Source: a virus
Length of the DNA stretch: 64,000 nt
Direction: 5' to 3' (one strand)
IMG/VR virus record: IMGVR_UViG_642555139_000003
The notes below the pieces were generated by a model, which made no database searches, was not told the origin of the DNA, and saw only the letters and a list, made by a program, of their open reading frames with translations. The translations under genes and the position numbers were made by a program. Of this stretch, positions 27,836-45,462 are shown one piece after another; within the stretch, counting starts at the first letter, position 1, and every line of letters starts with the position of its first letter.

Positions 27836-27864
27836 TTGCAACCTGCAACGCGTTGTGGCCTAGT
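27836..27864 (+). promoter_or_regulatory. Candidate sigma70 promoter for the accessory operon
   Basis: TTGCAA-N17-CCTAGT, ending 9 nt upstream of the first hairpin. Confidence 0.5.
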
Positions 27865-27919
27865 CGTCATCAGCGGCGCGCATCGGCGGGCCGCCCGACC
27901 AGGTGAAAGTCTCCTCCCC

Positions 27920-28153
27920 ATGATCCACCACACGAACGACACGCCGCGGGGCCGCTACCACATCGCCCGTCAGGTCCGGCGCGCTACGGGCGCCCTGGTC
28001 ACGCTGATGGCGGCGGGCGCCACGCCTGCAGACGTCGCCGCCTTCGTCCTCCGCCAGCAACCGGCCGCTTCGATCAATCTGAGCTGGCGCATCGAGGATG
28101 CCGCCCATGACGGCACGTTCGCCGCGGCCGTCTTCGACATCCTCGCCAACTGA
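27920..28153 (+). CDS. Small hypothetical early protein (77 aa)
   Basis: ATG 27920 preceded by the hairpin motif. Confidence 0.7.
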   Translation: MIHHTNDTPRGRYHIARQVRRATGALVTLMAAGATPADVAAFVLRQQPAASINLSWRIEDAAHDGTFAAAVFDILAN

Positions 28154-28221
28154 GGGGCCCCGGCCCCTCTCCCCTCCACGGGCCGCATCGGCGGCCCGCT
28201 CTCCAGACGAAAGCCCGCCCC

Positions 28222-28455
28222 ATGCTCACCATCCAACCCCGCTCCGCCTCCGCCGCCGCGCCTGCCGGTGCGCTTCCCGCAGATGGCGCCGTGATCGTCT
28301 TCGACGTCGTGCCCGTGGCGTCCTGGGCTTCCCCGGGCGTGGCGTACCGCGTGGAGCGGCAAGGCCGGGAGTTCCGGTTTCAGAACGTCCGCACCGGCTC
28401 CGCCACGTTCGACCGCGATTGGGCGGTCGCGCGCTCCAGCTGGCGGGCCGCGTGA
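28222..28455 (+). CDS. Small hypothetical early protein (77 aa)
   Basis: ORF preceded by the hairpin motif. Confidence 0.7.
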   Translation: MLTIQPRSASAAAPAGALPADGAVIVFDVVPVASWASPGVAYRVERQGREFRFQNVRTGSATFDRDWAVARSSWRAA

Positions 28456-28538
28456 TGCTCGGCGGTCTCGCCTTCCTCTTCGTCTGCGCGGCCGTCGCCG
28501 TCGCCCTCACGGCTGCAGGCGTCTTCATCGACCCGTGA
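28455..28538 (+). CDS. Very small single-TM peptide (27 aa)
   Basis: GTGATG overlap with the previous stop; hydrophobic MLGGLAFLFVCAAVAVALTAAGVFIDP. Confidence 0.45.
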   Translation: MLGGLAFLFVCAAVAVALTAAGVFIDP

Positions 28539-28632
28539 TGCGAGCAACCACGGCGCCCATGCGGTGCCGTGTCTCCCGCACCATGCGGGCCCGGCGCATC
28601 GGCGCCCGGCATCCCTGATGAAAGGTGTTCCC

Positions 28633-28776
28633 ATGTCCCGCACCGAGAACCGCGCCGCCCCCGCGTCCGCCCCGCGCCTCCCGTTCGGCAAGCGTCCCGA
28701 AGGCCGGGAGCGCCGCGACCAGCGCCGCGCCGCCCGCTCCGCCAAGGAGTCGTTTCTCCGCTCCGGGCGCGCCTGA
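28633..28776 (+). CDS. Arg-rich peptide (47 aa)
   Basis: GAAAGG SD and hairpin upstream; contains KRPEGRERRDQRRAARSAK. Confidence 0.65.
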   Translation: MSRTENRAAPASAPRLPFGKRPEGRERRDQRRAARSAKESFLRSGRA

Positions 28777-28853
28777 GCGTCCGGCCCCTTCCCTCGAAAA
28801 CCTAGCCTCACGGCGCCCGCATCGGCAGGCGCCCGCAACCCGGAGAAATCCCC

Positions 28854-29783
28854 ATGCTCACGACGTCCGCCGCTCTCGCCGCTCCCGCCCCCGTCGCTGC
28901 CCCGTCGCTGCTCTCCACCCGCGCCATGCTGCGCGGCGTGCGCATCTCGATGTGGGACGGGCGCAAGCATGATCGCGCCATCAGCGACGAGGTGAACCGC
29001 GCCAAGGGCGCCGCCGCCGACGCGGGCCGCTTTAACAAGGCCCTTGTGCCCGCCGAAGCGTTGAAGCCGGTGCAGGCTGCCGCGGGCCGCGTCCGGGCCG
29101 TGCATGCCCGCTACACGCTGCCATGGACGGATAACGGCCTCGACATCCTGCCGGCTGCCGCGGTCGTCGACTATGACCGGGAGATGCGGGCCGCCCGCGC
29201 CGAGTTCGAGGCGGCGGCGGACGTGTTCTGCAACATGGTCTTCCCCGGCCTGCTGCTGTCCGCGCCGGCCCGCTTAGGCGACATGTTCCGTGCCTCCGAC
29301 TATCCCGACGCGAGCGAGATCCGCGACCGCTTCAGCATGCGCGTCCGGACGCTGAACATGCCCGACGCGCGCGACTTCCGAGTCGACATGTCGGACGCTC
29401 AGGCCCGCGCGATCCGCGCCGAGCTGGAGGCCGAGTCCCGCGCCGCCCTCGCCGAAGCCATGGAGTCCGCGTGGCAACGCGTGGCGGACGTTTGCGGGCG
29501 CATGGTGGAGAGGCTGAACGCCTACAAGCCGGCGACGATGAAGGGTGAGAAGTCGGAAGGCGTCTTCCGCGACTCCCTGGTCGAAAACGTCCGCGACCTG
29601 GTCGCCGTCCTGCCGGCCTTCAACCTCACGAACGACCCGACGCTTGCGGACGTGTCGGAGCGCATGCGCGCCGAGCTGTGCAAGGCCGATGCAGCGGAGC
29701 TGCGCGACGACGTGGCGCTTCGGGAGCGCACGGCAGCGGCAGCCGCCGAGATCCACGCGATTGCGTCCGACTTCCTCGCCTGA
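28854..29783 (+). CDS. DUF3150-like helical protein (partner of the MoxR/vWA module)
   Basis: TLPWTDNG, RLGDMFRASDYPDASEIRDRF and FRDSLVEN motifs recalled from this family; GGAG SD. Confidence 0.65.
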   Translation: MLTTSAALAAPAPVAAPSLLSTRAMLRGVRISMWDGRKHDRAISDEVNRAKGAAADAGRFNKALVPAEALKPVQAAAGRVRAVHARYTLPWTDNGLDILPAAAVVDYDREMRAARAEFEAAADVFCNMVFPGLLLSAPARLGDMFRASDYPDASEIRDRFSMRVRTLNMPDARDFRVDMSDAQARAIRAELEAESRAALAEAMESAWQRVADVCGRMVERLNAYKPATMKGEKSEGVFRDSLVENVRDLVAVLPAFNLTNDPTLADVSERMRAELCKADAAELRDDVALRERTAAAAAEIHAIASDFLA

Positions 29784-29869
29784 CGCTGCGGCCCCTTGGC
29801 GGCCCGGCGCTGGAGCCGGGCCGCGCGGGGGCCGCATCGGCGGCCCGCTCCCCATGAAAGGCGAAGACT

Positions 29870-30913
29870 ATGAATCTGCATACCGCCCTGTCCGCCCTGT
29901 CCGAAGCGCTCAAGGCCAACATCCCGGTGATGCTCCACGGCGCGCCCGGCATCGGCAAAACCGACGGAATCGAGTCGACCGCTGCCGGCATCAAGCTGCC
30001 CTGCCTCACTGAGGTGCTTGCGACGATGGAAGCCGTCGACCTGCGCGGCCTCCCCTGCATCACGGGCGACTCCGTGTCCTGGTCGAAGCCCGACTTTCTG
30101 GCGCGCCTCGAGCGCATGGGCCCGGAAGGCGTGCTTTTCATCGACGAGGCGAACAGCAATGCGCAGTCGGTGCAAGTCCCGCTCATGCAGCTGGCATGGA
30201 AGCGCCAGATTGGCCCGCATGAGATCCCGACCGGCTGGCGCATCGTCATGGCGGGCAACCGGCAGTCCGATCGCGCCGCCGCGCAGCGCATGGGTACGGC
30301 GCTGGCGAACCGCTTGCTGCACCTCGATATCGATCCGCCCAACTCTCAGGACGACGTGCGCGCATGGGCGAAATGGGCCGCGGGCGCGCAGATTCACCCG
30401 ATGGTAATTGCGTTCATCATGCTCCGCGGCGGCCCGAACGGCGTGCAGGGCGCGCCGGGCTATCAACCCGGCCTGCTCTTCGACTTCCGGCCGGACGACG
30501 CGAACGCCCGCGCCTTCCCGACCCCGCGCGCATGGTCTCAGGTGTCCAAGATCGCGGATGCGCCCGACGCGGTGCGGCTGCACCTGGTCGCCGGCCTCGT
30601 CGGTGAAAAGGCCGCGTGCGAGTTCGAAGGCTTCGTGCAGGTCTACCGTTCCGCTCCGCCGGTGCTGTCCATCATCGCCAACCCGGCCGGCGCGCCCGTC
30701 CCGACACAACCGGGTGTGCAGTACGCTGTTTCGCTGGCGCTGGCACGGGCCGCCAACGCGGGCAACTTCTCTGCGGTGCTTCAGTACGTCCGCCGCGTCG
30801 GGCGTGAGTTCGAGATCGTGACGGCGACCGACGCCATCCGCCGCAACCCGGACCTTACCGATACTTCCGCCTTCATCGATTGGGCGGCCCGCAACAGCGA
30901 TGTGACCATCTGA
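29870..30913 (+). CDS. MoxR-like AAA+ ATPase
   Basis: Walker A GAPGIGKT, Walker B LFIDEAN, AGNR, and PTPRAW. Confidence 0.9.
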   Translation: MNLHTALSALSEALKANIPVMLHGAPGIGKTDGIESTAAGIKLPCLTEVLATMEAVDLRGLPCITGDSVSWSKPDFLARLERMGPEGVLFIDEANSNAQSVQVPLMQLAWKRQIGPHEIPTGWRIVMAGNRQSDRAAAQRMGTALANRLLHLDIDPPNSQDDVRAWAKWAAGAQIHPMVIAFIMLRGGPNGVQGAPGYQPGLLFDFRPDDANARAFPTPRAWSQVSKIADAPDAVRLHLVAGLVGEKAACEFEGFVQVYRSAPPVLSIIANPAGAPVPTQPGVQYAVSLALARAANAGNFSAVLQYVRRVGREFEIVTATDAIRRNPDLTDTSAFIDWAARNSDVTI

Positions 30914-30926
30914 GGGGGGCGGCACC

Positions 30927-32207
30927 ATGCGAGTCCAGGATCTTCCCGCGGCGGCGCGCATCACCCGCGCCCGCTCTCAGCTGGTCACCAATCCGGCTTA
31001 CGCGTTCTTCGGGACGCTGGCGCTTTCACTCCGAATCGTGGAGGCGCCCGACCGCACCGACACGATGGCGGTTGACGGGACGTCGCTGTTCTACGCTCCG
31101 GCCTTCGTCGAGTCCCTGTCCGAAGCTCACCTGCTAGGCGTGGTCGCCCATGAGGTGATGCACCTTGCCACGCTGCATCACGTGCGGCGTGCGGGGCGCG
31201 ATCCGGCGGATTGGAACCGGGCCTGTGATTTCGCCATCAATCCCGGATTGCGCGCCGCGGGCCTGAGCCTGCCGCCCGGCGGATGCGAGTCCGCCGACTT
31301 CGCCGGCATGGGGGCGGAGGCGATTTTCGCCGAGCTGCAGCGGCGCAAGCCTCAGTCTCCGCCGCCCGCTCAGGACGACCAGGACGGCGACCAGGACGAC
31401 AGCGGCGGCCCGGAGGCCGGCGCACGCGGCCCAGACGGCGACCAGGACGCGGACGGCGCCGAGCAAGGCGACCAGCCTGCCGGCGCGGGCGCCGTGTCAC
31501 CCGATCCGGGCGGATGCGGCGGCGTGATTGATGCGCCGACCGATGCGGGCACGATGGCGGAGCAAGCTGCCGAGATGGAGTCTCGCGTCCGGCAGGCTAT
31601 CAGCGTTGCCCGCGCCGCTCAGGCCGGCAACCTGCCGGGCTTTCTCGCCGGCCTCGTCGACCAGCTGAACGCACCGCGGGTGAACTGGCGCGACGAGCTG
31701 GCGGCGTTCATCGACGATGCCGCGACGCGCACCGCGTCATGGGCCCGGCCAAACAAGCGATTCCTTGCCTCCGGGTTTTTCCTTCCCGGCAGCATCGCCG
31801 ATTCAGTGTCCTGCATCGGAGTCGCCGTCGACACGTCCGGCAGCATCTACGGCGCCCCTAAGGTGCTGGAAGCGTTCCGCGACGAGATCCAGGGCATGCT
31901 CGATAGCGGGCGCGTGGAGCGTGTGCACATCGTGCATTGTGACCAGTCGGTGCAAGGCGTGCAGGACTTCGCTGCGGGCGACGTCGTCGACCTGCGGCCC
32001 CTTGGCGGCGGCGGCACGGCGTTCTCTCCGGCCTTCCGACACTTCGCCGAGCAAGCGCCGGACGTGGCTGCAATCGTCTACCTCACCGACCTGGAATGCT
32101 GCGACTTCGGCAGTGAGCCGGACGTGCCGGTTTTATGGGCCGCATGGGGCCGCTACCGCCCGGCGCTGCCGTTCGGACGCCTGATACCGGTTGATCCGCA
32201 CGCCTGA
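30927..32207 (+). CDS. DUF2201-like HExxH metallopeptidase + vWA domain protein
   Basis: HEVMH, MIDAS DTSGS, GGGGT..PAF and YLTD motifs; follows the MoxR gene. Confidence 0.88.
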   Translation: MRVQDLPAAARITRARSQLVTNPAYAFFGTLALSLRIVEAPDRTDTMAVDGTSLFYAPAFVESLSEAHLLGVVAHEVMHLATLHHVRRAGRDPADWNRACDFAINPGLRAAGLSLPPGGCESADFAGMGAEAIFAELQRRKPQSPPPAQDDQDGDQDDSGGPEAGARGPDGDQDADGAEQGDQPAGAGAVSPDPGGCGGVIDAPTDAGTMAEQAAEMESRVRQAISVARAAQAGNLPGFLAGLVDQLNAPRVNWRDELAAFIDDAATRTASWARPNKRFLASGFFLPGSIADSVSCIGVAVDTSGSIYGAPKVLEAFRDEIQGMLDSGRVERVHIVHCDQSVQGVQDFAAGDVVDLRPLGGGGTAFSPAFRHFAEQAPDVAAIVYLTDLECCDFGSEPDVPVLWAAWGRYRPALPFGRLIPVDPHA

Positions 32208-32253
32208 CGCGAGCGGGGGCGATCCGCAGCCCGCTCCGCGTGCGCAGAGACTT

Positions 32254-32298
32254 AACGGGCCGGGCTCATAGTGCAGCCGGCCCGTTTCTAGGCATTTC
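32254..32298 (+). terminator. 10-bp hairpin after the vWA gene; possible intrinsic terminator
   Basis: AACGGGCCGG-N13-CCGGCCCGTT followed by a weakly T-rich tail. Confidence 0.5.
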
Positions 32299-32353
32299 TC
32301 CCATGCCGGGCTGCAGCATGGACGCAGCCGGCACGCAACAGGACGGAGGACGT

Positions 32354-32944
32354 ATGGACGGCATCGGATCGCTGGCGACCATCATGCTCAGCGGCGTGGT
32401 TGCCGCTGTATCAACCTACGCGCTCAACTCATCGAAAGAGCATGTCTTTCACAGACGGACGAAAGCGGAGGAACTCTACAAGGCCTTTGACGGATGGCAG
32501 GCCAGCCTTTTGGATTAGTACATGCGCAGGGAGATGATGATTAAAGGCCAGATGACATATAACGATGTCATCGAAGCTGATCTTAAGGCAGACAAGCACA
32601 ACGGCGAGTGGCGAGACATGCGGATGCTGCTTGGCATCTACTTCCCGCAGCTAGGCCCGGAGTTCGACGGGATTATCCTTCGTCGCACTAACATGAATGC
32701 GGTGCTCCTGAAAATCATGCGAGCCTACCGCGAGCACCCCTCTTTCCCCCACGGGCATGAGCCGGAGAGCCGCCTGTTCAGCAACGAGTTCTCCGCGATC
32801 ATCAAGGAACTGGACGGTTTCCGCGATGCGATCGTGAGAGAGGCCTCGGCCATCGCGAGCGCCGACGCGCTCATGCCGGCATGGATGATCAGGGCGCAGC
32901 AGCAAACGCGAAAAATGTTCAACCGAAAGCCCGTCAGGTCATAA
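32354..32944 (+). pseudogene. Moron-like gene (N-terminal TM + helical domain) with an in-frame TAG at 32516-18
   Basis: ORFs 32354-32518 and 32522-32944 are in the same frame, separated by TAG TAC. GGAGG SD; lower GC. Confidence 0.7.
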
Positions 32945-32951
32945 ACAGGCG

Positions 32952-32984
32952 TTGACGCACCACCGCGTTGACGTTTATCCATCA
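32952..32984 (+). promoter_or_regulatory. Candidate promoter (tandem TTGACG) with a TATCCATCA operator half-site over the -10 region
   Basis: TTGACG at 32952 and 32968; TATCCATCA at 32976-84; the hairpin begins at 32991. Confidence 0.5.
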
Positions 32985-33035
32985 ATACCGGACGCGCATT
33001 GGCGTGTCTCGGCCAACCCGATGAAAGGACTTCAC

Positions 33036-34190
33036 ATGATCCGCAACGTCTCCGCCGACCTGTTCCGCATCGTTGCCGCGTACCGTTCCACCGACGATTC
33101 CCGGTTCTATCTGCAAGGCGTTTACGTGCAGCCCCATCCCTGCGGCGGGGCCTACCTCGTGGCGACGGACGGGCACCGCATGCTCGTGGTCTACGATGCC
33201 TCCGCCGAGTGCACCGAGGCCGCTATCATCGCGTGCCCGTCCGATCTCCTCCGGGCTGCCAAGTCGAAGCCGGTTCGGCAGCGTCGGCGCGGTACCGCCG
33301 CGCAGGACGGCGAGCCGATGGGCCCGCGCATGCTGGCAGTTATCGAAGACCAGGCGATAATTTCCTGCGACGGATTCGAGGTGCATCGCGGCGGTGCGCC
33401 GGCCGTCATCGACGGCACCTTCCCGGACTGGCGCCGGACCGTGCCGACGATCGACGCCGTGCCGGCGGCGGAGCGCTCGCTCTCGCCCGCGTTCGCCCCT
33501 GCCTACCTGGAGGCCTTCGGAGAGACCGGCCGGGCGCTGTCCGAGCACTTCGACACGAGTGCCCCGGTGCGAATCGTCTCCTGCGGACAGAGCGCGGCCC
33601 TCGTGCTCTTCGACAACTGCCGGGAGGCATTCGGCGTGCTGATGCCGATGCGGAGCATGGCCCCGACCGCGCTGCCGGCCTTCCTCGATGCGCGCCCGTT
33701 CGCCGAGCCGCGAGTGCAGGTCTCGCCCGTCGAGCGGTCCAACGTCTACGGGCGCGATAGCGACAGCTGGGGCTTCACCGTCACCACGACCCGATCGGAG
33801 CTGCACTTACCGGAGGCGCGGCAGTTCGCGTTCTCCACTGAGGCCGCGGCCAAGCGCGCTTACATGGCGCTCCGGAAGAAGCTGGCGAAGCGCGGCGTCC
33901 GCGCGCTGCCGGAGAAGTACCGCCCGGCGATCGCACTCGGCGACGCGTACCTCGAGGCGCTGAAGGAGCGGGCCGCGGCCATCGCGGATGCACGCGAAGC
34001 CTTCCAGGCGGTGGAAGACGTGGAGCTGGAGGCGCCGTGGCGCCGGGCCATGGTCGTGCGCAGCATGGCGCCACTGCCGGCATGGGAATCGCCCGTGATC
34101 GTCGCTGCTGCGACCGAGGCCGCGTTCCGCCGCCTGCCGGCGCGGTCCGAGGCCGCCGCCCTCGCCAACGTCTACCGTCTAGCCGCCTGA
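33036..34190 (+). CDS. DNA polymerase III beta-clamp-like protein with C-terminal extension
   Basis: RFYLQGVY, ATDGHRM and GTFPDWRRTVP match DnaN middle-domain motifs. Confidence 0.75.
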   Translation: MIRNVSADLFRIVAAYRSTDDSRFYLQGVYVQPHPCGGAYLVATDGHRMLVVYDASAECTEAAIIACPSDLLRAAKSKPVRQRRRGTAAQDGEPMGPRMLAVIEDQAIISCDGFEVHRGGAPAVIDGTFPDWRRTVPTIDAVPAAERSLSPAFAPAYLEAFGETGRALSEHFDTSAPVRIVSCGQSAALVLFDNCREAFGVLMPMRSMAPTALPAFLDARPFAEPRVQVSPVERSNVYGRDSDSWGFTVTTTRSELHLPEARQFAFSTEAAAKRAYMALRKKLAKRGVRALPEKYRPAIALGDAYLEALKERAAAIADAREAFQAVEDVELEAPWRRAMVVRSMAPLPAWESPVIVAAATEAAFRRLPARSEAAALANVYRLAA

Positions 34191-34246
34191 GGAAGTCGGA
34201 TCGGTCGCGCCCGCCGCTGAGCGGGCGCAGCCGTCCGGTGCGCGCC

Positions 34247-34567
34247 ATGATGCACGACACATTCCCCCACACCCATGATGCGGCTGTCGAGTTCGAGCCG
34301 CTGACCATCGCCATCGACCGTGTGGCCGCCGGCATCGCTCGGACTGCCGCCGACCAGCGCCGGCCCGGCAGCGACTATCTGCGCAACCCGCCGCTGACGA
34401 CCCGAGAACGCGAATGGGCCGCTCGCGCCCGCCTCGCTGCGCGCCTCCTGGAGGTGCTCGCCAACGCCGACGGCGACGACGTGCTCTCGCCCTCGCTCGA
34501 TCCGGCCCTGGTCGCCTTGCGCGCCATCGTGGCCGACGCCGACCGCGCCCCGTCCCCCCGCTGCTGA
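34247..34567 (+). CDS. Hypothetical protein
   Basis: Same-strand ORF filling the operon gap. Confidence 0.55.
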   Translation: MMHDTFPHTHDAAVEFEPLTIAIDRVAAGIARTAADQRRPGSDYLRNPPLTTREREWAARARLAARLLEVLANADGDDVLSPSLDPALVALRAIVADADRAPSPRC

Positions 34568-34592
34568 TCCCCTCCTGCTTGGAGCCACGCCC

Positions 34593-35282
34593 ATGGTCAC
34601 GATCACCGTCACCGAATCCGTGCGCGCTCTCTTGGAGCATGCGTTAGGCCGCTTCATCGGCGGCGCGCAGCCGCCGGCTGCTGTCCTGCTGAGTGTCGCC
34701 GGTCGGACCTATGACGCCGCCACCCTCTCCGACGCCTACAACGCCGTTGCGGCCGCATCCCGCAGCGGCGTTCGCGCCTTCCTGGACCTTTCTACCTCGC
34801 ACCTGCAGGCCTCCACCCGCGAGATGTGGACCGAGAGCTTCGACGCCGAGCACTTCCCGACACCGACCTGGTGCGGCGAGACCGGCTGGCTGCTCTTCGT
34901 GCCGGCGAGCAACGACGCGTGGGACCACGTGTGCGGCTCCGAGCTGCCGGCGATCTTCGATCACGCCCGCGCTGCCGGCGCCGAGTACGTGCGCTTCGAC
35001 GAGGGCGCGCCGGTCGTCGAGGCCCTGCCGATCTTCGAGGATGACGGCGAGCCCGAGAGCGATGCGTTCTGGGATGCTGCGATGGCTGCGGAGGCCGAGC
35101 CCGCTGCACCATTCAGGTTCACGCCTGACGACGACGCATTCATCCAGGCCATGCAGGTCCAGAACTTCGACGCGACACAGATCGCGCGTTTGCTGGCGAA
35201 CCGGACGGGCATGCACTGCAGCCGCACCGACGTCGCCGTCCGCCTCGCTGATCTCGCCACGGCTGAGGCACTCCATGGATAG
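34593..35282 (+). CDS. DUF5983-like protein
   Basis: LDLSTSHL, GWLLFVP and ARAAGAEYVRFDEGAPVVEALPIF motifs. Confidence 0.65.
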   Translation: MVTITVTESVRALLEHALGRFIGGAQPPAAVLLSVAGRTYDAATLSDAYNAVAAASRSGVRAFLDLSTSHLQASTREMWTESFDAEHFPTPTWCGETGWLLFVPASNDAWDHVCGSELPAIFDHARAAGAEYVRFDEGAPVVEALPIFEDDGEPESDAFWDAAMAAEAEPAAPFRFTPDDDAFIQAMQVQNFDATQIARLLANRTGMHCSRTDVAVRLADLATAEALHG

Positions 35283-35395
35283 GGGTTCGATCGCTTCGGG
35301 GCTTGGCATGCCGACCGGGGCCGCCCCATACCCTTCCGCTGCAACTGCGCGCCGGGAGGATCACCAAGAACATGAACGCGGGGAGGCGGCGCACG

Positions 35396-35881
35396 GTGGA
35401 CATTCTGACGACCACGGATCTGAAGGCCCTGCGGCTGCTTCTGGGCCTGTCGCCGGCGGAGGCCGCGGCCATGATCGATGAGCCGAAGGACTGGCTGGTC
35501 GACGCGGAGCGTGGACGCAGCTGGAATATCTCGCCGAAGTACCGCGACTTCCTCCTGCGCATGGAGGAGGTGGTGCAGACCTTCATCGATTGGGTCGAGA
35601 CCACGCCCGGCCGGTTCATCATCGTATACTCTAACGAGGACGTGTTCCGGGACTATGACCCGGTGTGGGCCGCGAAGTTTCCGACGGCGCTGATGCACCT
35701 TCAGGCAGCCTCGCGCGCCGTCTCGACGCTGGGCAACCGGCAGCTCAACATCGTGACGCTCTTCCCGAAGGCCTTCGAGGAGTACCTGCAGCACACCGGC
35801 AAGGCTGACTCGCCGGACGTGCGGCAGAGCTGGGCAGAGGCCTTCAGCGCCAATTACCGAACCATGGGAGCGAAGCGTTGA
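35396..35881 (+). CDS. Aca2/YdiL (DUF1870)-like HTH regulator
   Basis: GTG start after GGAGG. TTTDLKALRLLLGLSPAEAAAMI...AERG and IIVYSNEDVFRDYDP..HLQAASRA resemble the Aca2/YdiL pattern. Confidence 0.65.
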   Translation: MDILTTTDLKALRLLLGLSPAEAAAMIDEPKDWLVDAERGRSWNISPKYRDFLLRMEEVVQTFIDWVETTPGRFIIVYSNEDVFRDYDPVWAAKFPTALMHLQAASRAVSTLGNRQLNIVTLFPKAFEEYLQHTGKADSPDVRQSWAEAFSANYRTMGAKR

Positions 35882-36309
35882 GCGCGATCGGCGAGCTGTG
35901 GTCCGGTCTCGGCAAGGCGGTACAGGGGAAGGCCGGCGCTCGCGCGCCGGTCCCCACCCTGCGGTATTTCGAAGATCCGACCGTCGCACAGACCGCGGCC
36001 GACGAGGCGCATCGGCTGTGGCTCCGGATCGCGCAGAAGGTCCAGGGCGGCGTCTGGTTCTACCAGGCGCGCGAGCAGGTGCTCGCCGAGGAGATCCCGG
36101 ACATCGGCAAGGCCTACGGCCGACCGGTGGCCTCACGGGTCGAGAAGGCGGTGCAGCGGATGGAGCCGTGCGACCTGCCGGCAGCGGCGACGGCGGCGGT
36201 GCGCGCAGGCAACCAGGCAGCGGCGCGGAGCTTCCTGCGGGCGCGGGACGGGCGGGTGAGCCTCATCAACCGGCTGAGCCTTGCGTGGTTCGGCCGGCAC
36301 TTTTGGTGA
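35878..36309 (+). CDS. Hypothetical protein
   Basis: Overlaps the previous stop (TTGA); last gene of the operon. Confidence 0.6.
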   Translation: MSAIGELWSGLGKAVQGKAGARAPVPTLRYFEDPTVAQTAADEAHRLWLRIAQKVQGGVWFYQAREQVLAEEIPDIGKAYGRPVASRVEKAVQRMEPCDLPAAATAAVRAGNQAAARSFLRARDGRVSLINRLSLAWFGRHFW

Positions 36310-36324: not shown

Positions 36325-36693
36325 CTACCGTGCGCAGCTGCTGATCTCTTTCCATGTCCGCTCAGCGTAATAGTCGTCGCCGAGCAGGGACCAAGCGGAC
36401 TTGATCGTCACGCTGGTGCCCTTGCCGGCCCGCCGCACGTCCATGTCGACGAAGCGGTTCGTCGCGGAGCTGACGAGGCCGACGGCCGTCTCTTCCATCA
36501 CGATCTTGATGGTGTCGGCGCCGCGCAGATCGGTGAGCCGCACCATCGAAGGATAGGCCTGATCCAGCACCTGGAACGCGCAGGCGGCGAACTGCGCATG
36601 GTCGGCGGCGATCTGCCGGGTGAAGGTGGCGCTGGCCGGCGCGGCTGACGCGACGAGGCCGAGGGCGATGCAGAGCGGTAGGCCGATCCTCAT
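36325..36693 (-). CDS. Secreted protein (signal peptide, two distal Cys)
   Basis: MRIGLPLCIALGLVASAAPASA signal peptide. Confidence 0.7.
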   Translation of the reverse strand: MRIGLPLCIALGLVASAAPASATFTRQIAADHAQFAACAFQVLDQAYPSMVRLTDLRGADTIKIVMEETAVGLVSSATNRFVDMDVRRAGKGTSVTIKSAWSLLGDDYYAERTWKEISSCAR

Positions 36694-36758
36694 GCATCAT
36701 CCTGACCACGGCTCAGGCTGCGTTGGCAAGCCGCCGGCGCTCGCCCATGATGGCCGGC

Positions 36759-37067
36759 ATGCGCCGAATCCTCATCTCTCTCCCGCTGCTCCTGCTCTCG
36801 CTCAGCTCCGCCAGCGCCGAGCAGATGAAGCCGGAGGTGTGCGACAAGCTTCGAGACGCCTTGTACGCTGTGGTCAAAGCCGTGGACGGCTCGATCAAGA
36901 TGGCTGAGTCGCTGGAGCTGCGTGACAGGCGCGAAGATGTCGGGCCGAAGACGCGGGCAGCTCTGGAGCAGATGACAGCCACCCGCCTACGGTTTCAGGC
37001 CAGCCTCTTCGAATACAAAGCCGCTTCGCGCGCCGCTGCCGAACAGATCGCGTCGTGCTCAGAGTGA
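36759..37067 (+). CDS. Secreted protein (signal peptide, Cys near both ends)
   Basis: MRRILISLPLLLLSLSSASA signal peptide; divergent from the previous gene. Confidence 0.7.
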   Translation: MRRILISLPLLLLSLSSASAEQMKPEVCDKLRDALYAVVKAVDGSIKMAESLELRDRREDVGPKTRAALEQMTATRLRFQASLFEYKAASRAAAEQIASCSE

Positions 37068-38708
37068 CGTGCTGAAGTTGGCCCGCAGGGTCCGGCGGTG
37101 CAACTGCGTGCCGGCCATGTTGCAGGCGGCCTCAAACCCATCCAGGTCGTAACGCGACACGAAGGAGGGCAGGGGCTGCGGGAGCGCCTGCCGGAGGACG
37201 CCGACGAGCCGCGCATCCTCGCCGAGATCAGGGGGCGTGCCGGTGCCGGCTGCACGGACCAGGCGCTCTTGGAGCGTCTGGGCGGCCGGCGCGGCGAACT
37301 TGAGGGCACAGAAACGCTCGATGCTGGCGTCGAGGTATTCCGGATGGTCGAGCACCGCGACGACTAAGGCGGCCTCCCGAGCCGGTATGGCAGGGCGGAG
37401 CCGGCGCTCCAGCGCCGTCGGTCCCAGCTGAGGTCGGGCCTGCCCAAGGCGGCGCGTGCGCCTCAACAACTCGTCGGTGAAGGCCCGGCGCATCGTCTCC
37501 TCTCCGACGACAGCGAGCGTCGCCCGGATCCCTGTCTCCAGCTTCGCCCGATCCTCGGGCCCGTCGCCGGGTGTCTCCGCGCGCAGCTTCAGCCATAGGC
37601 GCTCAGCCATGTGCTGCGCCTGACGGATGACCGCTTGCAGTGCGTTAGGCCCGGCGCTGCGCACCAGGTCGTCGGGATCGACACCCGTCGGAAGGATGCC
37701 GAACACGATGCGGCGATCACCAGAGACCCAAGGCAGGGCGGTGTCGAGCGTCCGATCGGCGGCGCGGGCGCCCGCTTCGTCCCCGTCAGCGATGTGCACG
37801 ACCACCGGAGCGACACGCCATAACGCGTGCAGATGCTCGACGGTGAGGGCCGTTCCCATGGGGGCGACGACGTTCTCGATCCCGGCCTGCGCGACCTGGG
37901 CGACGTCCATGTACCCTTCGAGGACGATGGCACAGCCGTTGCGGCTGATCGCCTGTCGGGCACGATCCATGTGGTAGAGCACGCGCCCCTTGTCGAAGAG
38001 CGCTGTCTCGCGCCCGTTCAGGTATTTCGGCATCCCGCCGTCCATCGCGCGGCCGCCGAACGAGATCACCTCCTTCACTCGGTTCCGGATCGGGAACATG
38101 ATCCGGCCGCGGTAGAAGTCCCGGACCGGTACCGATGGATCATCCGGAGATGTCGCCACGCCGGCCTCGATCGCATCCTGAGTTGACCAGCCGCGGTCGG
38201 CGAGGTGTTCGAGCAGTGCTCGCCCGGCCTCAGGCGCCCAGCCTATGCCGAGCTGAGAGGCGATCCGGCGCCGCAACCCTCGCTTCCGCAGGTAGGCTTG
38301 AGCCGCCTCCGAGGCCTGCAGTTGCCGCACGAAGAAGTCCTGCGCGCAGGCGAGCAACTCGATCGCCGAGCCTCGGGCCGCGCGCGACGCCTCGGTTTCC
38401 CGGGTGATCCCATCGCGGGTCACTTCGATGCCGGCGCGCCCCGCCAGCTCCTCCACCGCCTCGGGGAAGGTGAGGCCGGACATCTCCATCACGAAGTCGA
38501 TGGCGTTGCCGTGCTTGCCCGTCGAGAAGCAGTGCCAGAATCCCTTCTGATCGTTCACGAAGAAGCTCGGCGTCCGCTCGCGAGCGAATGGCGAGAGGGC
38601 CCGCCACTCCCGGCCGGCGCGCTTAAGCTGCACGTACCCTCCGACCACCTCGGACACCGGCAGCCGATCCTTGATGGCCTCGATCGTGGCGTGCGTGATC
38701 CTGGGCAT
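37059..38708 (-). CDS. dnaG: DNA primase
   Basis: Rhizobiales-type Zn-binding domain (SPFARERTPSF...HCFSTG), GGRAMD, KYLN, and TOPRIM EGYMD and DGDEAG. Confidence 0.93.
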   Translation of the reverse strand: MPRITHATIEAIKDRLPVSEVVGGYVQLKRAGREWRALSPFARERTPSFFVNDQKGFWHCFSTGKHGNAIDFVMEMSGLTFPEAVEELAGRAGIEVTRDGITRETEASRAARGSAIELLACAQDFFVRQLQASEAAQAYLRKRGLRRRIASQLGIGWAPEAGRALLEHLADRGWSTQDAIEAGVATSPDDPSVPVRDFYRGRIMFPIRNRVKEVISFGGRAMDGGMPKYLNGRETALFDKGRVLYHMDRARQAISRNGCAIVLEGYMDVAQVAQAGIENVVAPMGTALTVEHLHALWRVAPVVVHIADGDEAGARAADRTLDTALPWVSGDRRIVFGILPTGVDPDDLVRSAGPNALQAVIRQAQHMAERLWLKLRAETPGDGPEDRAKLETGIRATLAVVGEETMRRAFTDELLRRTRRLGQARPQLGPTALERRLRPAIPAREAALVVAVLDHPEYLDASIERFCALKFAAPAAQTLQERLVRAAGTGTPPDLGEDARLVGVLRQALPQPLPSFVSRYDLDGFEAACNMAGTQLHRRTLRANFSTSL

Positions 38709-40126
38709 CAGAACCTCTTCATCTCAGCGTAGGCGTCGGAGAGCGGCAGTTCCTTCGCGGCGAGGTCGCGGAAGTGCATCGTCTCGCCGACGAACTCGCA
38801 GGCCTGCGTCTGGTAGGCCTTCCCGTGTCGGCGCTTGGCGTTGATGATCTCGGCGCGGCCCTCGATCAGGGTCATCTTGTCCCGCCACGCGACCGCATCC
38901 TTCGAATCGGGATCGGTCATGTCCGGCTTGCGCTCGAGGTGCGCGATCTCAGGCCGGTGCGTGAAGATGATCGTGTCGGCGTGGGGCTCGATCGAGCTGT
39001 AATACATGAGGTCGCCCGACCGCGGCCGCCCGTCATCTCGGGACCGGACCTCCTTGTTCATCTGGGCGAGGGCGACGACCCCGATTTGGAGTTCCTTCGC
39101 CATCTTCTTCAGCTCCTCGGATGCTTTCGCCGTGATGTCGGCGCGCTCCTGGCGCTTGAAGCTTGGTTCGATGATGTGGAGGTGATCCACGATCATCCAC
39201 CGGATCCCAAATTTGTGCTTGTAGCGGATGGCGCGGGCTCGGATCTTTTCGATGTCCATTCGCGGACTGTGGTCGATCCAGACCGGAAGCCTTCTCATTC
39301 GGCGCGCGAGTTCGTCGAGGCGTCCGGCCTCATCCTCGTTGATGCGCGCATTCGCTATGCGCCATGCCGGTAGGTCAGAGTGCGCGGACATGGCTCGAAT
39401 CGCCCAATCCTCGCCCTCCATTTCTAGGCTCATGATGAAGCCAGGCGCCTGACTGCCGAAGAACTCGGCGGCTTGACCGGCCAATGCGGATTTTCCAGAT
39501 CCCGGTCGACCACCCTTAATGACCAGCTGGCCAGGCATCAGCGGGCCCGCGACCTGATCGACGGCGTTCAGCCCCCATTTCAAACCGCTGGTCGCGACTG
39601 ACGGTGAATCGATCGCCGCGATCGCGCGGGAGGTCGCAAGTTGAGCCCACTCGCCAAACATGCGCACGTGGCTGACGTCGACCTTCGACGAGTTGAGGAT
39701 CCGGACATCGGCCTCGTCGATGGCGTTCTGCGCTTCGGTGAGCGGGTCGAGCCGGCCGATCGCCTGGATGCCGTCGACCGCAGCTGCGATCCATCGCCTC
39801 CGGCGCGCGAGATCGCGCACCTGCTTGGCGTAGTGGATGGTGTCGCGCAGGTCGGCGACGCCCTCCATCAGCACCTCGATGTAGTCCGGGTCGACGCTCG
39901 TGCCCTTGTCGCCGCTCTTGGCGAAGTCGTGCACGATCGCCGCGTTCACGCGCTTGCCGGTGTCGACCAGCTGCGCGATCGTCCGGAAGACGGTCTGGTG
40001 CTGCCGGTCGTAGAAGTCATCGGCCTCCACGTCCCCGGCGATGTCGTGGAAGATCTCGTCGCGCATGAGGAGCGCGCCGAGGATCTGCTGCTCGGCTTCG
40101 ATGTTGTAGGGGTTCGGTACCTGCAT
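38708..40126 (-). CDS. dnaB: Replicative DNA helicase
   Basis: PYNIEAEQQILG, Walker A GRPGSGKS, IVDHLH, LAQMN and AKRRHG. Confidence 0.93.
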   Translation of the reverse strand: MQVPNPYNIEAEQQILGALLMRDEIFHDIAGDVEADDFYDRQHQTVFRTIAQLVDTGKRVNAAIVHDFAKSGDKGTSVDPDYIEVLMEGVADLRDTIHYAKQVRDLARRRRWIAAAVDGIQAIGRLDPLTEAQNAIDEADVRILNSSKVDVSHVRMFGEWAQLATSRAIAAIDSPSVATSGLKWGLNAVDQVAGPLMPGQLVIKGGRPGSGKSALAGQAAEFFGSQAPGFIMSLEMEGEDWAIRAMSAHSDLPAWRIANARINEDEAGRLDELARRMRRLPVWIDHSPRMDIEKIRARAIRYKHKFGIRWMIVDHLHIIEPSFKRQERADITAKASEELKKMAKELQIGVVALAQMNKEVRSRDDGRPRSGDLMYYSSIEPHADTIIFTHRPEIAHLERKPDMTDPDSKDAVAWRDKMTLIEGRAEIINAKRRHGKAYQTQACEFVGETMHFRDLAAKELPLSDAYAEMKRF

Positions 40127-40132
40127 GGCCGG

Positions 40133-40759
40133 TCACCCGACCTCATCGAATTTGCCGACCTCGTTCCCGAAGATGTCCCAGCCGGGTCCGCTGGCGCGCG
40201 AGTAGAGCTCGACCCCGGTCGTGCCGGTATATCGCTCGATCCGCCGCCGCACCTCAGCGGGCTTGCGCGAATGCTCCCACCGCCGTGTGACGACGATCTG
40301 CCGAACGTCGGTGGCGGCGCGTTTCGGCGCGCCCCGGCGGGCGAGCACGACCAGCTCGGCGTTCTGACGCGTGGTGAAGCCGGCGCCCGCGAACAGGACG
40401 TCGTCCCAGTTCTCCGAGTAGCGGATCGAATCGGGGGCGTTCGTCTTCACCCACACGAAGGCGAGCGACGATGGCTTGAAGCCCCATGCCCTGATGACGT
40501 CGACATGCATGCCGGCGGCGACCATCGGGCCGGTCGTCCAAAGGAAGAGGTGGCAGTCTTCGGCGGCGAGATCCGCGACAGGGTCGGCCTTGATCTCGTC
40601 GAGGCTCCGGGTCGCGTAATGCTGGCTCGGCGAGCGGCCCTGTCCGGCCTCGGTGCGGGTAACGAAGGACCAGGGCGGATCGGCATAGATGACGGGATAG
40701 CCGTTCCGCTTCAGACCGGCGAAGAAGTGCCCTGCCGGCAGGCGTTCGCAGTCATCCAT
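40133..40759 (-). CDS. MT-A70 family adenine methyltransferase
   Basis: IYADPPW, LFLWTT, FVWVK, HSRKP and ELYSR motifs. Confidence 0.9.
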   Translation of the reverse strand: MDDCERLPAGHFFAGLKRNGYPVIYADPPWSFVTRTEAGQGRSPSQHYATRSLDEIKADPVADLAAEDCHLFLWTTGPMVAAGMHVDVIRAWGFKPSSLAFVWVKTNAPDSIRYSENWDDVLFAGAGFTTRQNAELVVLARRGAPKRAATDVRQIVVTRRWEHSRKPAEVRRRIERYTGTTGVELYSRASGPGWDIFGNEVGKFDEVG

Positions 40760-41580
40760 GCACGGCCTCCCCAATCGGAGAAGCCACGATCCACGTAGCC
40801 GGCGCAGACGCCCGGCTGGAAGAGATCGCACTGGCCGCGATCGAAGAAGGTCCGCTGCGGCGGCTTCGGCACGAGCACGCGCTGCCGGCGGGGCTGACGG
40901 ATCGGTAGCGGGGGCTGAAGGGCGAGATCGAGGCCGTCGATCCCGACCCGCGGCTGCTTCGAGGCCTTCGCAAGGATTCTGCGCGGGCGAGCAACAGGAA
41001 CGGGTTTCTCGACGCGTGCGGGCGCACGCGGAGCGTCGGGCGGGACATAGCTTCTCAGCGTCTCAGAGGTTCGGATGTCTGCCGCTGCAGGGGTCCTACC
41101 CCCCTCATCCCGAAGGATCGTCCGCGCCCGGCAGGCCGGGCAGTACGAACTCTTCTCGGCAACGACGGCACCGCAGACGATAAGCCCGAGGCCCGATCCG
41201 CGCAACGGAAAACGGCAGTTACTCATCATCGCGTTGATGAATAGTAGCGAGGTGCTGGGCAGCGGCTTGTCTGCTGGCCAGAGGTCGCCGGCTACGGCGT
41301 TGCGCTCTTCCGTCAGGCGCTTCGTGTGGCTCCGACGGGCTGCCGGCCGCTTCGAGTTCCAGGGGGAGGAGCTGCGGCGTCCGCGTCGGCTCTTCCTCGC
41401 TAAGGCGCGGGGATCCTCAGCTTTTTTGGCGCGATCGATCACGCAGTTCACTGCGTTCGCTGTGAGGTACAGCCCCATCTCGCGATAGATCGTGGCGGCG
41501 ATCGTCGCCGAATCGTGGTCACCGCAGAGGTCGAGGATCCGCTCGTTCCGGGGCGTCATGGCGAGTGCGACGCCATTCAT
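40711..41580 (-). CDS. GcrA-like cell-cycle regulator
   Basis: N-terminal HTH with TANAVNCVIDR, and CRFPL...VCG...SYCPAC, the Cys cluster characteristic of GcrA. Confidence 0.7.
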   Translation of the reverse strand: MNGVALAMTPRNERILDLCGDHDSATIAATIYREMGLYLTANAVNCVIDRAKKAEDPRALARKSRRGRRSSSPWNSKRPAARRSHTKRLTEERNAVAGDLWPADKPLPSTSLLFINAMMSNCRFPLRGSGLGLIVCGAVVAEKSSYCPACRARTILRDEGGRTPAAADIRTSETLRSYVPPDAPRAPARVEKPVPVARPRRILAKASKQPRVGIDGLDLALQPPLPIRQPRRQRVLVPKPPQRTFFDRGQCDLFQPGVCAGYVDRGFSDWGGRAWMTANACRQGTSSPV

Positions 41581-41600: not shown

Positions 41601-41623
41601 TATCCATCATCCGTTGATGGATA
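41601..41623. promoter_or_regulatory. Perfect palindrome TATCCATCA-N5-TGATGGATA, candidate operator
   Basis: Intergenic, just upstream of the gcrA-like start; related sites at 46608, 32976 and 27577. Confidence 0.65.
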
Positions 41624-43243: not shown

Positions 43244-43722
43244 GCAGCGAACCTGCACTCATCCGGCAGGCGCCGCGCAGTGCGGCACATCCACCACCGA
43301 TTCCGCGCCCACTTCACGGTGCCACCCCAGACGTCGAACAGCTCGCCCTCGAACTCGACGACGTCGTGATAGGCGAGGCGGGTCTCGACCCTATCCCACT
43401 GCTCGTAGGCGCCGGGTTCGGTGGCGCGCAGGCGGCCCTGCCCATCCCGCCACAGCTTGCTCCATGGACGCAGAACGTAGGGGCGCAGGTAGAAGATGAC
43501 GGTCCGGATGTAGCAGCAGAACGGCTGAGCGAGCGCGGGGGAGGGCGCCTTGGTCCGCAGCGGCTCCCAGATCACCAGGCGCCACGGCGCCGGCCGCACG
43601 ACGAGACAGTCGCCGAGGTCGACGAGACCCGCCCTCTCCCGGCCGGCATAGGTCGACACCTCGGTGAGGCCGAGCACCCCGCAGGGTGCCCGCTCCTCCG
43701 CGTCGAGCCGACGCCGGCTCAC
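43240..43722 (-). CDS. Hypothetical protein
   Basis: Overlapping stop/start at both ends. Confidence 0.6.
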   Translation of the reverse strand: MSRRRLDAEERAPCGVLGLTEVSTYAGRERAGLVDLGDCLVVRPAPWRLVIWEPLRTKAPSPALAQPFCCYIRTVIFYLRPYVLRPWSKLWRDGQGRLRATEPGAYEQWDRVETRLAYHDVVEFEGELFDVWGGTVKWARNRWWMCRTARRLPDECRFAA

Positions 43723-44849
43723 TGCCTCAGCTCCTTCAGGCCCTTCCCGAGCAGATGCCCCTGAGCCTCAGACCACTTGTCGTTCCAGGCCTGATGGCAC
43801 TGGTCGTTCTCGTCCGGATAGGGGTTCGAGCTCTTGTCAGCGCCGCGGTAGCCGGCGCGATAGCCCTCTTCGCGAGCGTGGGCGAGGCGCTTCTCGTGCG
43901 TGTCGCGATCCTCCTCGCCGAAGATGTGGATGTGGCCGGCGGCCGGCAGGTGCACGGCGCGGCGATAGTCGTTCTCGCGGTTGATGCTGTCGGTCAGCTC
44001 GTCGGGCGACATGCGCAGCTCGTCGAGGATCTTGTTCAGCACCTTCGGATCGACGCCGTCGTCCTTGGCCTTCTTCATCTTCTCGCGGAGCTTGCCCGTC
44101 GCGGAGGCCACCGCCTCCTTCGCAGCGCGGATCACGCCAACGTGCCGAAGGATGGTCATCTCCGAGACGCCGCCGTTGTCGCCCTTGCGGAGCATCTTCT
44201 TCGGGAGCGGAGCCTCCTCCTCGTCCGCCGCGGCCTGCGCGTGCGCGAACCCGTCGGACGGCCGGGCGGCGCGACCTCCGGACGCCTCGCGGAACTCGGT
44301 CATGTGGTGCGCGTGATCTGCGGCCTTGCGCTGCGCGGCCTTCGAGGTCAGGGGCTTGCCGCCGTTCACCGGCTCGGTGGAGACGCGCTGCACCGGGAAG
44401 ACCTCGCCGAGCGGATCCTTTGAGCCGACGAGGCGCACGCGGACGTTCTTGGCATCCTCGATCTTCAGGAGGGTGCCGCTCTTCTCGGTCTGATTCCGCT
44501 TCGTGCCGAACCGGACGATCGCCGGATCGCCGACAATGACGGGCTGCCCGTTGAAGCCGAGCACGTCCTCCGCGGTCGCACCGCCGGATGCTTCGCGCTC
44601 CAGCGCTTCCTCCGCAGCCCGCGTTTCGGCGGCTCGCTCGCGCGCGACGCGCTGGTGCGGGGCCTCTTCGTCTTCCTGGAAATCGTCGTCGCCCGGCTCT
44701 GGCTGGTCCGCCGGCAGAGCGGACGGATCGGGAACTGCTTCGGAGGAGGTAGCTGCAGAGCGGGGGCGACGGAGGAACTCGGGGATGTCGCCGGCATCCC
44801 CCTCGATGTGTTGAGCGTCAGTCGTCGGATTCGTTGCTCTGTCGGTCAT
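43719..44849 (-). CDS. Multidomain protein: acidic N-terminus, GapR/DUF2312-like domain, Rmf-like C-terminus
   Basis: KAKDDGVDPKVLNKIL...DYRRAV (GapR-like) and EEGYRAGY..NPYP...QAWNDKW (Rmf-like). Confidence 0.6.
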   Translation of the reverse strand: MTDRATNPTTDAQHIEGDAGDIPEFLRRPRSAATSSEAVPDPSALPADQPEPGDDDFQEDEEAPHQRVARERAAETRAAEEALEREASGGATAEDVLGFNGQPVIVGDPAIVRFGTKRNQTEKSGTLLKIEDAKNVRVRLVGSKDPLGEVFPVQRVSTEPVNGGKPLTSKAAQRKAADHAHHMTEFREASGGRAARPSDGFAHAQAAADEEEAPLPKKMLRKGDNGGVSEMTILRHVGVIRAAKEAVASATGKLREKMKKAKDDGVDPKVLNKILDELRMSPDELTDSINRENDYRRAVHLPAAGHIHIFGEEDRDTHEKRLAHAREEGYRAGYRGADKSSNPYPDENDQCHQAWNDKWSEAQGHLLGKGLKELRQ

Positions 44850-45462
44850 CGGGGGCGCCCTGGTCGCTGGAGGGATCCCCGCCCTCACCAGATGCCCGCC
44901 GCTGGCGCGTGTTCCGGTAGGATTCGGGGCTGATTTTCCCCTGCTCCGCCAGGTTCATCGTCTCCGCGATCCGCTCCAAGCTGTCGATGCGGAACCCTTC
45001 GCCCTGCTTGATGCGCGCGATCAGGCGATGATCGTTCTTCCCGGCATAGAGCAGGGAGATCTCGCCCCAATCCTTATTGCGATCCAGGAACAGCTCCAGG
45101 TCCGCGAGGAACGCCTCAGCCACACGGTTCTTGTAGCCACCGTACTGCGGCTTGCCGTCCTGTCCCGCCATCTCGCGGATGCCTCGCTTGGTGTGACCTC
45201 GCGCAGACGCCAAACCTTCAGGCGTTGCAGAGTTGACGCCACCATGACCCGGTTTAATCGTCAACGCAAGGGAAAGCGTCACGCCATTCCCACCATTCGG
45301 CTTGAACTCGAATTGGTGGATCTCGGTGCCTTCCTCGATCTGGTTCGGCGCCGGGACGACGACATCCAGGGGATCATCCGGGTTGCTACCCGGCTCGCGC
45401 GTCACCTGATCCTTCGGCTGTGACGCCCCGATGATTTGTGAGTGGATGCCAGTCATAGGCAT
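44818..45462 (-). CDS. Cro-like HTH protein with N-terminal extension
   Basis: FLADLELFL...NDHRLIARIKQGEGFRIDSLERI resembles alphaproteobacterial phage Cro-like HTHs; GGGAG SD. Confidence 0.6.
   Translation of the reverse strand: MPMTGIHSQIIGASQPKDQVTREPGSNPDDPLDVVVPAPNQIEEGTEIHQFEFKPNGGNGVTLSLALTIKPGHGGVNSATPEGLASARGHTKRGIREMAGQDGKPQYGGYKNRVAEAFLADLELFLDRNKDWGEISLLYAGKNDHRLIARIKQGEGFRIDSLERIAETMNLAEQGKISPESYRNTRQRRASGEGGDPSSDQGAPDDRQSNESDD

Follow-up and report, generated by a model that had tools for sequence, protein, structure and literature searches.

The gene at 35396-35881 of the window (the whole 64-kb stretch of DNA that was analysed) is predicted, and by structural modelling confirmed, to encode a divergent member of the Aca2/YdiL/SO3848 superfamily that carries the extra C-terminal helices of the DUF4447 branch. 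The protein has the two-domain fold of this superfamily, keeps its place in a syntenic operon, is coupled to a partner gene and co-occurs throughout its lineage with short RNA hairpins. The conserved phage setting is what is new here for a superfamily member. In itself the helix-turn-helix (HTH) protein is an ordinary-looking, divergent representative of a known regulator superfamily, and the hairpin array is the more unusual object. That the HTH protein acts as an Aca2-superfamily feedback regulator of the early operon is an even prospect, judged by analogy. The RNA-hairpin and anti-CRISPR parts of the interpretation offered by an earlier note on this DNA stand as hypotheses.

The window is a prophage with a GC content of 67%. 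Tail, head, portal and large-terminase genes occupy the minus strand up to 25944 and are followed by an HNH gene. The plus-strand early operon then spans about 8 kb, from ~27850 to 36309, and meets a converging minus-strand operon that encodes primase (37059-38708), DnaB (38708-40126), an MT-A70 methylase and a 289-aa protein. Upstream of the HTH gene lie the DUF5983-C gene, a gene for a 106-aa protein without assignment and the clamp-like gene. As the earlier note had it, many small unknown genes precede the HTH gene on its strand; the HTH gene itself has its place near the 3' end of the operon. The features of this part of the operon are the following:

32952..32984, plus strand: promoter-like element, TTGACG-N18-TATCCA, carrying a TATCCATCA half-site (a sequence reading, missed by a consensus scan)
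33036..34190, plus strand: sliding-clamp-like gene, first in the sub-operon that ends with the HTH and partner genes (full DnaN domains in relatives)
34593..35282, plus strand: gene for a DUF5983 C-terminal-domain protein, the upstream neighbour of the HTH gene (Pfam E 8.5e-14; syntenic in relatives)
35396..35881, plus strand: target gene, 161-aa protein with an HTH and a C-terminal alpha/beta domain (Aca2/YdiL/SO3848 fold, DUF4447 branch)
35878..36309, plus strand: gene for the 143-aa all-helical partner, whose start overlaps the HTH stop by 4 nt
36270..36297, plus strand: terminator-like stem-loop with a T-run, at the operon end

The reading frame of the HTH gene is open across 35303-35881 and has a coding-type composition (GC3 0.87). 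The GTG at 35396, with GGAGG 9 nt upstream, is the start that matches relatives; an ATG at 35372 is an alternative start that would give 169 aa. One metatranscriptomic library contains contigs identical to 35127-35277 and 35360-35880, which are a weak sign of expression of the HTH gene, DNA carry-over being possible.

An AlphaFold2 model of the target protein, built on seven relatives (pLDDT 85, pTM 0.80), consists of a four-helix N-terminal Xre-type HTH (helices 14-23, 28-34 and 39-46) followed by an alpha/beta domain. Foldseek places SO3848 (2OX6) at the top of the matches to this model (E 3e-9, TM 0.73-0.77), followed by five Aca2 entries (E 7e-4 to 3e-3, TM by target 0.70-0.77) and YdiL. 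VIA-align gives a Z of 18.0 against SO3848 (148 residues, rmsd 1.9), of 11.2-11.5 against Aca2 (110-114 residues, across model residues 10-131 and hence both domains) and of 10.4 against YdiL; one-domain HTH proteins reach a Z of at most 8.4, over only ~52 residues (model residues 10-63). Both parts that characterise the two-domain superfamily, the Xre-type HTH and the alpha/beta C-terminal domain, are thus aligned in the target. SO3848 and YdiL have been described as the only two-domain structural homologues of Aca2 (Usher et al., PMC8434428).

Taken alone, the target sequence falls below threshold for Pfam DUF4447 (PF14590; 15.8 bits vs a cut-off of 27.2, E 0.013, profile positions 8-163 of 166) and for HTH_3 (E 0.16), and it has no match to PF08965 (Aca2_YdiL), PHROGs or NCBIfam. 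A 42-member family profile detects 2OX6 with an E of 1.3e-25 (positions 6-155), the Aca2 chains at ~1e-8 and YdiL at 1e-5. Among the 42 representatives, direct Pfam matches to DUF4447 occur in 13 (best E 2e-84) and to PF08965 in only five. It follows from these structure and profile matches that the earlier note, which had recognised an HTH and C-terminal pattern resembling Aca2/YdiL, was correct, with the refinement that the nearest branch is the longer DUF4447/SO3848 one. The comparison it had suggested came out in part: SO3848, the Aca2 structures and YdiL are matched over both domains, but not PF08965.

SO3848 of Shewanella oneidensis resembles the target along the full-length fold, extra C-terminal helices included (148 of ~160 residues aligned), and the two have a conserved C-terminal R-x-x-W-A motif in common. 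However, their identity is only ~18-20%, and SO3848 is a chromosomal protein without known function, encoded downstream of an SMI1/KNR4 gene (PMC8434428), whereas the target belongs to a prophage early operon and has its own conserved partner. YdiL of Salmonella (1S4K) has the same two-domain fold but is 15-16% identical, and its stand-alone chromosomal gene is likewise without known function (PMC8434428).

An exhaustive profile search returned 60 cluster representatives at E<1e-3 among 1.8 billion. The 50,697 GenBank phage records contain no homologue of the HTH protein, and IMG/VR scans using either the HTH alignment or the DUF3150-like protein found nothing. A sample of 401 genomes of the family yielded the gene twice and one of 401 genomes of the order yielded it once, and the phage lineage that carries it has no cultured representative. 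The loci examined (designated by L numbers) bear homologues at 96, 79, 72, 48, 47, 37, 30 and 28% identity; to these were added a contig of the nearest genomic relative, Methylobacterium dankookense SW08-7 (L010, target protein 78% identity), and a second genome of the family (G589). In all recovered loci (at least 12, from 96 to 28% identity) the HTH gene is placed close to the end of a long operon on the plus strand that converges on a primase/DnaB operon. The genes directly upstream of it vary and include DUF5983, PAPS-reductase-like, dGTP-diphosphohydrolase-N, DUF4942 and methylase-like genes. The HTH gene is a fixed core gene of a rare temperate-phage lineage of Methylobacterium and related alphaproteobacteria. 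The DUF4447/SO3848 branch, which has no known function, gains by this a conserved setting, at the end of a phage early operon and usually next to a fixed partner.

This partner is usually translationally coupled to the HTH gene. Its homologues in relatives mostly stand directly downstream of the HTH, with a start that overlaps or nearly so; one small gene sometimes intervenes. They are more conserved than the HTH itself (44-88% vs 28-96% identity). In L016 and L017 the HTH is kept and an unrelated membrane-like protein takes the partner position. The partner is predicted to be all-helical (pLDDT 78), has no fold match in the PDB (best E 1.7) and no Atlas lead, matches no Pfam, PHROG or NCBIfam entry and has no homologue in the 50,697 GenBank phage records.

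The proposed role in feedback regulation is based on the analogy with Aca2 and on the position in the operon. Aca2 of Pectobacterium phage ZF40 (7B5J, 7VJO, 7VJQ) is a dimeric autorepressor that also binds 5' UTR hairpins (PMC8434428, PMC13551039). It is phage-borne and combines an HTH with a C-terminal dimerisation domain, and its operon, at whose 3' end it is encoded, has a leader with a 7+4+7 inverted repeat/hairpin; the target resembles it in these respects, although its dimerisation and the leaders of its operon are predicted. The HTH protein would accordingly form a dimer that binds nucleic acid. Its synthesis from the early transcript would come late, after which it would turn down the promoters and/or leaders of the early operon. 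This reading is supported by the layout of the sub-operon 32952-36309, which runs from a predicted promoter through a 7+4+7 inverted repeat/hairpin in the putative leader and the genes to the HTH, and would so match the architecture reported for aca operons. The promoter-like element at 32952..32984 is directly 5' of the hairpin at 32989. Repeats of the 7+4+7 type occur just 3' of the predicted promoter boxes (27846-27894, 32952-33010), with arms that are not conserved in sequence. The ZF40 operator IR1, TGTTCGC-GATT-GCGAACA, has the geometry (7-bp arms, 4-nt spacer) and the inner CGC/GCG of the window hairpins.

Several differences from Aca2 must be noted. The target is ~45 residues longer. 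Its gene lies in an ~8-kb operon with replication and MoxR/VWA genes, no acr being directly upstream, and it is fixed in position and has a conserved downstream partner, whereas Aca2 travels with varied acr genes. The hairpins here are single and scattered, unlike the two adjacent ones in one leader of Aca2. Moreover, Aca2 reads the half-site GTTC through R30, Y34 and R39 (PMC8633003), and in an HMM alignment these correspond to D40, D44 and R49 of the target. One of the three contact residues is thus kept and two are Asp. The putative recognition helix is acidic (D40, D44, E46), and the helix-3 segment varies across relatives (EPKDWLVDAE, EDKAWLRNIE, VHGGEARQLE, IPADELRTLE). The invariant positions of the family are structural HTH residues (L17, R21, G25, E46) and a C-terminal D-x4-R-x2-W-A motif. 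The family consensus has a basic residue at the position of Aca2 R30, and K39, which neighbours D40 in the target, is conserved in the nearer clades.

The case for a regulator is weakened by the Asp residues in place of R30 and Y34 and by the acidic, variable recognition helix. It is also weakened because the target alone is below the Pfam thresholds, no inverted repeat is directly upstream of the HTH gene in the window and no Acr is recognised. Finally, a fixed place beside replication genes, with a conserved partner, would suit a non-regulatory role as well.

The hairpin array comprises six copies in the window:

27873..27894, plus strand: first hairpin, loop ATCG, 27.1 bits, 3' of the CAACGCGTTG/-35-like box at 27846 and before gene 27920
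28178..28199, plus strand: hairpin, loop ATCG, 29.2 bits, before small gene 28222
28589..28610, plus strand: hairpin, loop ATCG, 22.6 bits, before the gene for a 47-aa arginine-rich peptide
28812..28833, plus strand: hairpin, loop ATCG, 23.3 bits, before the DUF3150-like gene
29827..29848, plus strand: hairpin, loop ATCG, 28.5 bits, before the MoxR-like ATPase gene
32989..33010, plus strand: hairpin, loop ATTG, 23.2 bits, -12.3 kcal/mol, in the 5' leader of the clamp-like/HTH sub-operon

Each of the six is 22 nt long, with a GC stem of 7-9 bp and a 4-nt loop (ATCG in five, ATTG in one), and they have predicted energies of -12 to -18 kcal/mol. The hairpins sit 12-26 nt before start codons (21-26 nt for the six window copies), with a GAAAG(G)-type Shine-Dalgarno sequence in between. 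A covariance model run over both strands of the 64 kb detects at E<0.01 only these six copies, which were among its training sequences, all on the plus strand between 27873 and 33010; nothing else in the window exceeds 17 bits. No Rfam family matches the hairpins. In an alignment of 38 copies, 86.8% of the cells pair vs 55% in shuffles, a figure that is partly circular, pairing having been a criterion in the choice of copies. No such circularity affects the range of pair types found around a constant loop, and two-sided changes are seen at 8 of the 9 pairs. The hairpins, with their conserved A-W-N-G tetraloop and covarying 7-bp stems, are real.

Hairpin modules were seen in L001, L005, L007, L008, L010, L012, L016 and L017, and with variant loops in G589. 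Loops in relatives are ATCG, ATTG, AATG, GATG, ATGG and ATAG, and the stems differ; the loci at 28% identity have seven copies (L016) and six copies (L017) of the form CCGGA-ATGG-TCCGG. The stem sequences also differ among the hairpins of a single phage, which means that half-sites of the kind that Aca2 contacts in DNA are not conserved. Two window hairpins directly follow promoter-like boxes (27846, 32952) and would therefore lie at transcript 5' ends; the others are intercistronic. Blocks shared between the window and L001 end at hairpin modules (27922, 28847, 32951), the DNA between being swapped. The modules therefore behave as boundaries of exchangeable cassettes in a mosaic accessory region. 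The six UTR hairpins of the earlier note are borne out as real, strand-specific elements before start codons, but in the covariance-model scan of the window no hairpin precedes 34247, 34593, 35396 or 35878. In L001, L012 and L016, by contrast with the window, a hairpin of this kind stands before the HTH gene.

The 47-aa peptide encoded at 28633-28776 on the plus strand, itself preceded by a hairpin, has the core FGKR-EGR-RR--RRAARSAKESF. It is conserved in the window and in L001, L005, L007, L008, L010, L012 and L013, where the DUF3150-like gene invariably comes right after it, and is possibly an RNA-binding peptide. As far as the hairpins are concerned, the combination of a conserved arginine-rich peptide with short GC hairpins of conserved loop recalls lambda N and boxB. 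Here, however, there are at least six hairpins per operon, each before a ribosome-binding site, their loop is A-U-N-G and not a GNRA-like pentaloop, and no boxA was seen.

The earlier note had suggested that the co-occurrence of the HTH gene with the hairpins be examined across prophages. Every locus with the HTH that extends far enough upstream has hairpins, down to 28% identity. Hairpin arrays in relatives lacking the gene, which the note would have taken as refuting its proposal, were found in none of 108 loci with related operon genes and neither the HTH nor its partner, these loci being much more distant than the HTH-bearing ones. The 108 comprise 27 loci from IMG/VR and 80 from metagenomes, all with a related VWA/DUF2201 gene, and one genome locus with a clamp-like homologue; the 80 metagenome loci gave 12 single hairpin matches in 770 kb, on the two strands. 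A scan of IMG/VR with the pattern GGAATGGTCC...AGGAGGA found single hairpins only, in unrelated contigs without the HTH, and is uninformative since the matches are not arrays. The co-occurrence is confounded with descent, because all HTH loci belong to one syntenic lineage that was retrieved with the HTH as bait.

These observations bear on the model of the earlier note, in which the HTH protein is a trans-acting reader of the A-U-N-G hairpins, binding them in mRNA and, at the two promoter-proximal copies, as DNA repeats, and thereby repressing translation of each tagged cassette; the cassettes would be anti-defence genes. On balance this is unlikely, if worth entertaining. Consistent with it, the hairpins are genuine, strand-specific and 5' of start codons with a Shine-Dalgarno sequence between; they follow the HTH through all adequately covered loci and form no arrays in the 108 loci without it; the HTH gene is hairpin-preceded in three relatives; their geometry equals that of Aca2 IR1; and near-identical phages differ in a mosaic fashion in the tagged 5' half of the operon. 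In addition, RNA motifs for Aca2 have been reported in leaders and between the genes of one operon (2026 NAR paper, PMC13551039). Against the proposal, the co-occurrence is fully confounded with common descent, and the loop stays A-U-N-G while helix 3 shifts from EPKDWLVDAE to VHGGEARQLE or IPADELRTLE. The stems differ within a single phage, Aca2-type DNA half-sites are not conserved, the contacts R30 and Y34 are lost and four genes at the HTH end of the window operon are without a hairpin. The conserved arginine-rich peptide is another candidate reader, and a role in cis, as 5' stabiliser, insulator of the ribosome-binding site or recombination boundary, would need no reader at all.

Direct binding of the hairpins by the HTH protein is accordingly unlikely. 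Rather doubtful, too, is the fuller statement that an Aca2-superfamily HTH is the dedicated reader of lineage-wide A-U-N-G hairpins, one placed before the ribosome-binding site of each exchangeable early-operon cassette. If it were true, each of six to ten accessory (possibly anti-defence) genes would have its translation or stability gated separately by a single regulator, and Aca2-type dual DNA/RNA control would be extended to the DUF4447 branch and to multi-site control in one operon. Many cistrons would then be under the RNA-level control of one HTH protein in a system open to experiment, and the hairpins could help to single out accessory or counter-defence genes in prophages of alphaproteobacteria.

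The anti-defence part of the earlier note fares less well. It had put forward the small genes of the operon as candidate anti-CRISPR or anti-defence proteins, yet searches of Pfam, PHROGs and NCBIfam revealed no known Acr or anti-defence family among the operon proteins. The operon contains instead DUF3150-like, MoxR-like ATPase, VWA/DUF2201, clamp-like replication and DUF5983-C genes, and an acr gene directly upstream in a short acr-aca operon, as is characteristic of Aca2, is not found here. Before 34247 and 34593 the covariance-model scan found no hairpin. Gene 35878 loses its standing as an Acr candidate because it is a conserved, coupled partner, more conserved than the HTH, which is the opposite of Acr behaviour; it too is without a hairpin. 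The mosaic 5' half, together with the variable DNA-modification-type genes that relatives have beside the HTH, would fit an accessory or counter-defence region, which they may represent.

The earlier note also had the HTH protein act on TATCCATCA sites. This motif forms a perfect palindrome at 41601-41623 (TATCCATCA-N5-TGATGGATA) and is also present singly at 32976 and close by. In two places, 32952-32981 and, on the minus strand, ~41650-41615, it fits TTGNNN-N17/18-TATCCA, a predicted -10 element. The palindrome lies 20 nt upstream of the gene for the 289-aa protein (40711-41580, minus strand), which overlaps the MT-A70 methylase gene, and it keeps its place with altered arms in L004 (AATCATCAA...TTGATGATT) and L008. 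As an HTH operator TATCCATCA was rejected as unsupported: it coincides with promoter geometry at 32976 and 41615, and in L004 the arms change and helix 3 is identical. The proposed action on these sites has consequently been given up, the motif overlapping predicted -10 elements and nothing tying it to the protein. CAACGCGTTG is an unlikely operator too, since its half-sites are 5 bp apart and unsuited to a dimer with helices ~34 Å apart; it recurs at -35-like boxes. A GcrA assignment of 40711-41580 was likewise set aside, as Pfam did not confirm the domain in the window copy. L016 has a GcrA-domain gene in an operon matching the one to which 40711-41580 belongs.

Quite improbably, the HTH protein and its 143-aa partner could work as a pair in the replication module and not as a regulator of gene expression: one might bind the origin or recruit other factors, and the other might load the helicase or serve as an adaptor for the phage DnaB. 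The pair follows the clamp-like gene and in every case borders on the converging primase/DnaB operon; in the rest of the region examined no gene for an initiator or loader was recognised; and the partner is more conserved than the HTH, as expected of a protein contacting conserved machinery. However, neither protein resembles known initiators or loaders, no iterons or AT-rich origin were noticed nearby, and L016 and L017 keep the HTH with another protein in the partner's place. Least probable is the idea that the HTH mainly binds protein, neutralising or chaperoning the partner as part of a two-gene module that resembles an antitoxin or anti-repressor system, and that it has little or no sequence-specific binding of nucleic acid: translational coupling, co-conservation with the partner, the acidic recognition helix, the loss of the Aca2 contacts and the weaker structural matches to the Xre-type antitoxins HigA, HipB and NatR speak for it, but nothing toxin-like was seen in the fold or family of the partner, an HTH gene placed before the partner gene is not diagnostic, this partner is missing from L016 and L017, and the basic consensus at the R30 position and the conserved K39 are at odds with it. 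Feedback regulation of the early operon is thus the preferred reading.

A number of other features were observed in the region. A three-gene plus-strand module at 28854-32207 (DUF3150-like, MoxR-like AAA+ ATPase, VWA/DUF2201) is also present in L005, L007, L008 and L012; the 96%-identical relative L001 has unrelated genes there. Between the VWA gene and the promoter of the clamp-like gene lies a lower-GC insert, 32240-32950, with two small ORFs (32346-32518, 32522-32944). A variant hairpin (32213-32234) and a second stem-loop (32255-32285) precede it, and it has the appearance of an acquired moron. Two small genes between the converging operons, at 36325-36693 on the minus strand and 36723-37067 on the plus strand, encode signal-peptide-like N-termini and are likely lysogenic-conversion morons. 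The 389-aa product of the minus-strand gene at 43719-44888 resembles ribosome modulation factor at its C-terminus (Pfam RMF, E 5e-5) and has a DNA-binding segment weakly similar to GapR (E 0.01). Finally, the L001 primase (11907-14504, minus strand) has 865 aa vs 549 aa in the window and shows a faint LAGLIDADG match, so that the extra length is probably an intein or homing-endonuclease insertion.
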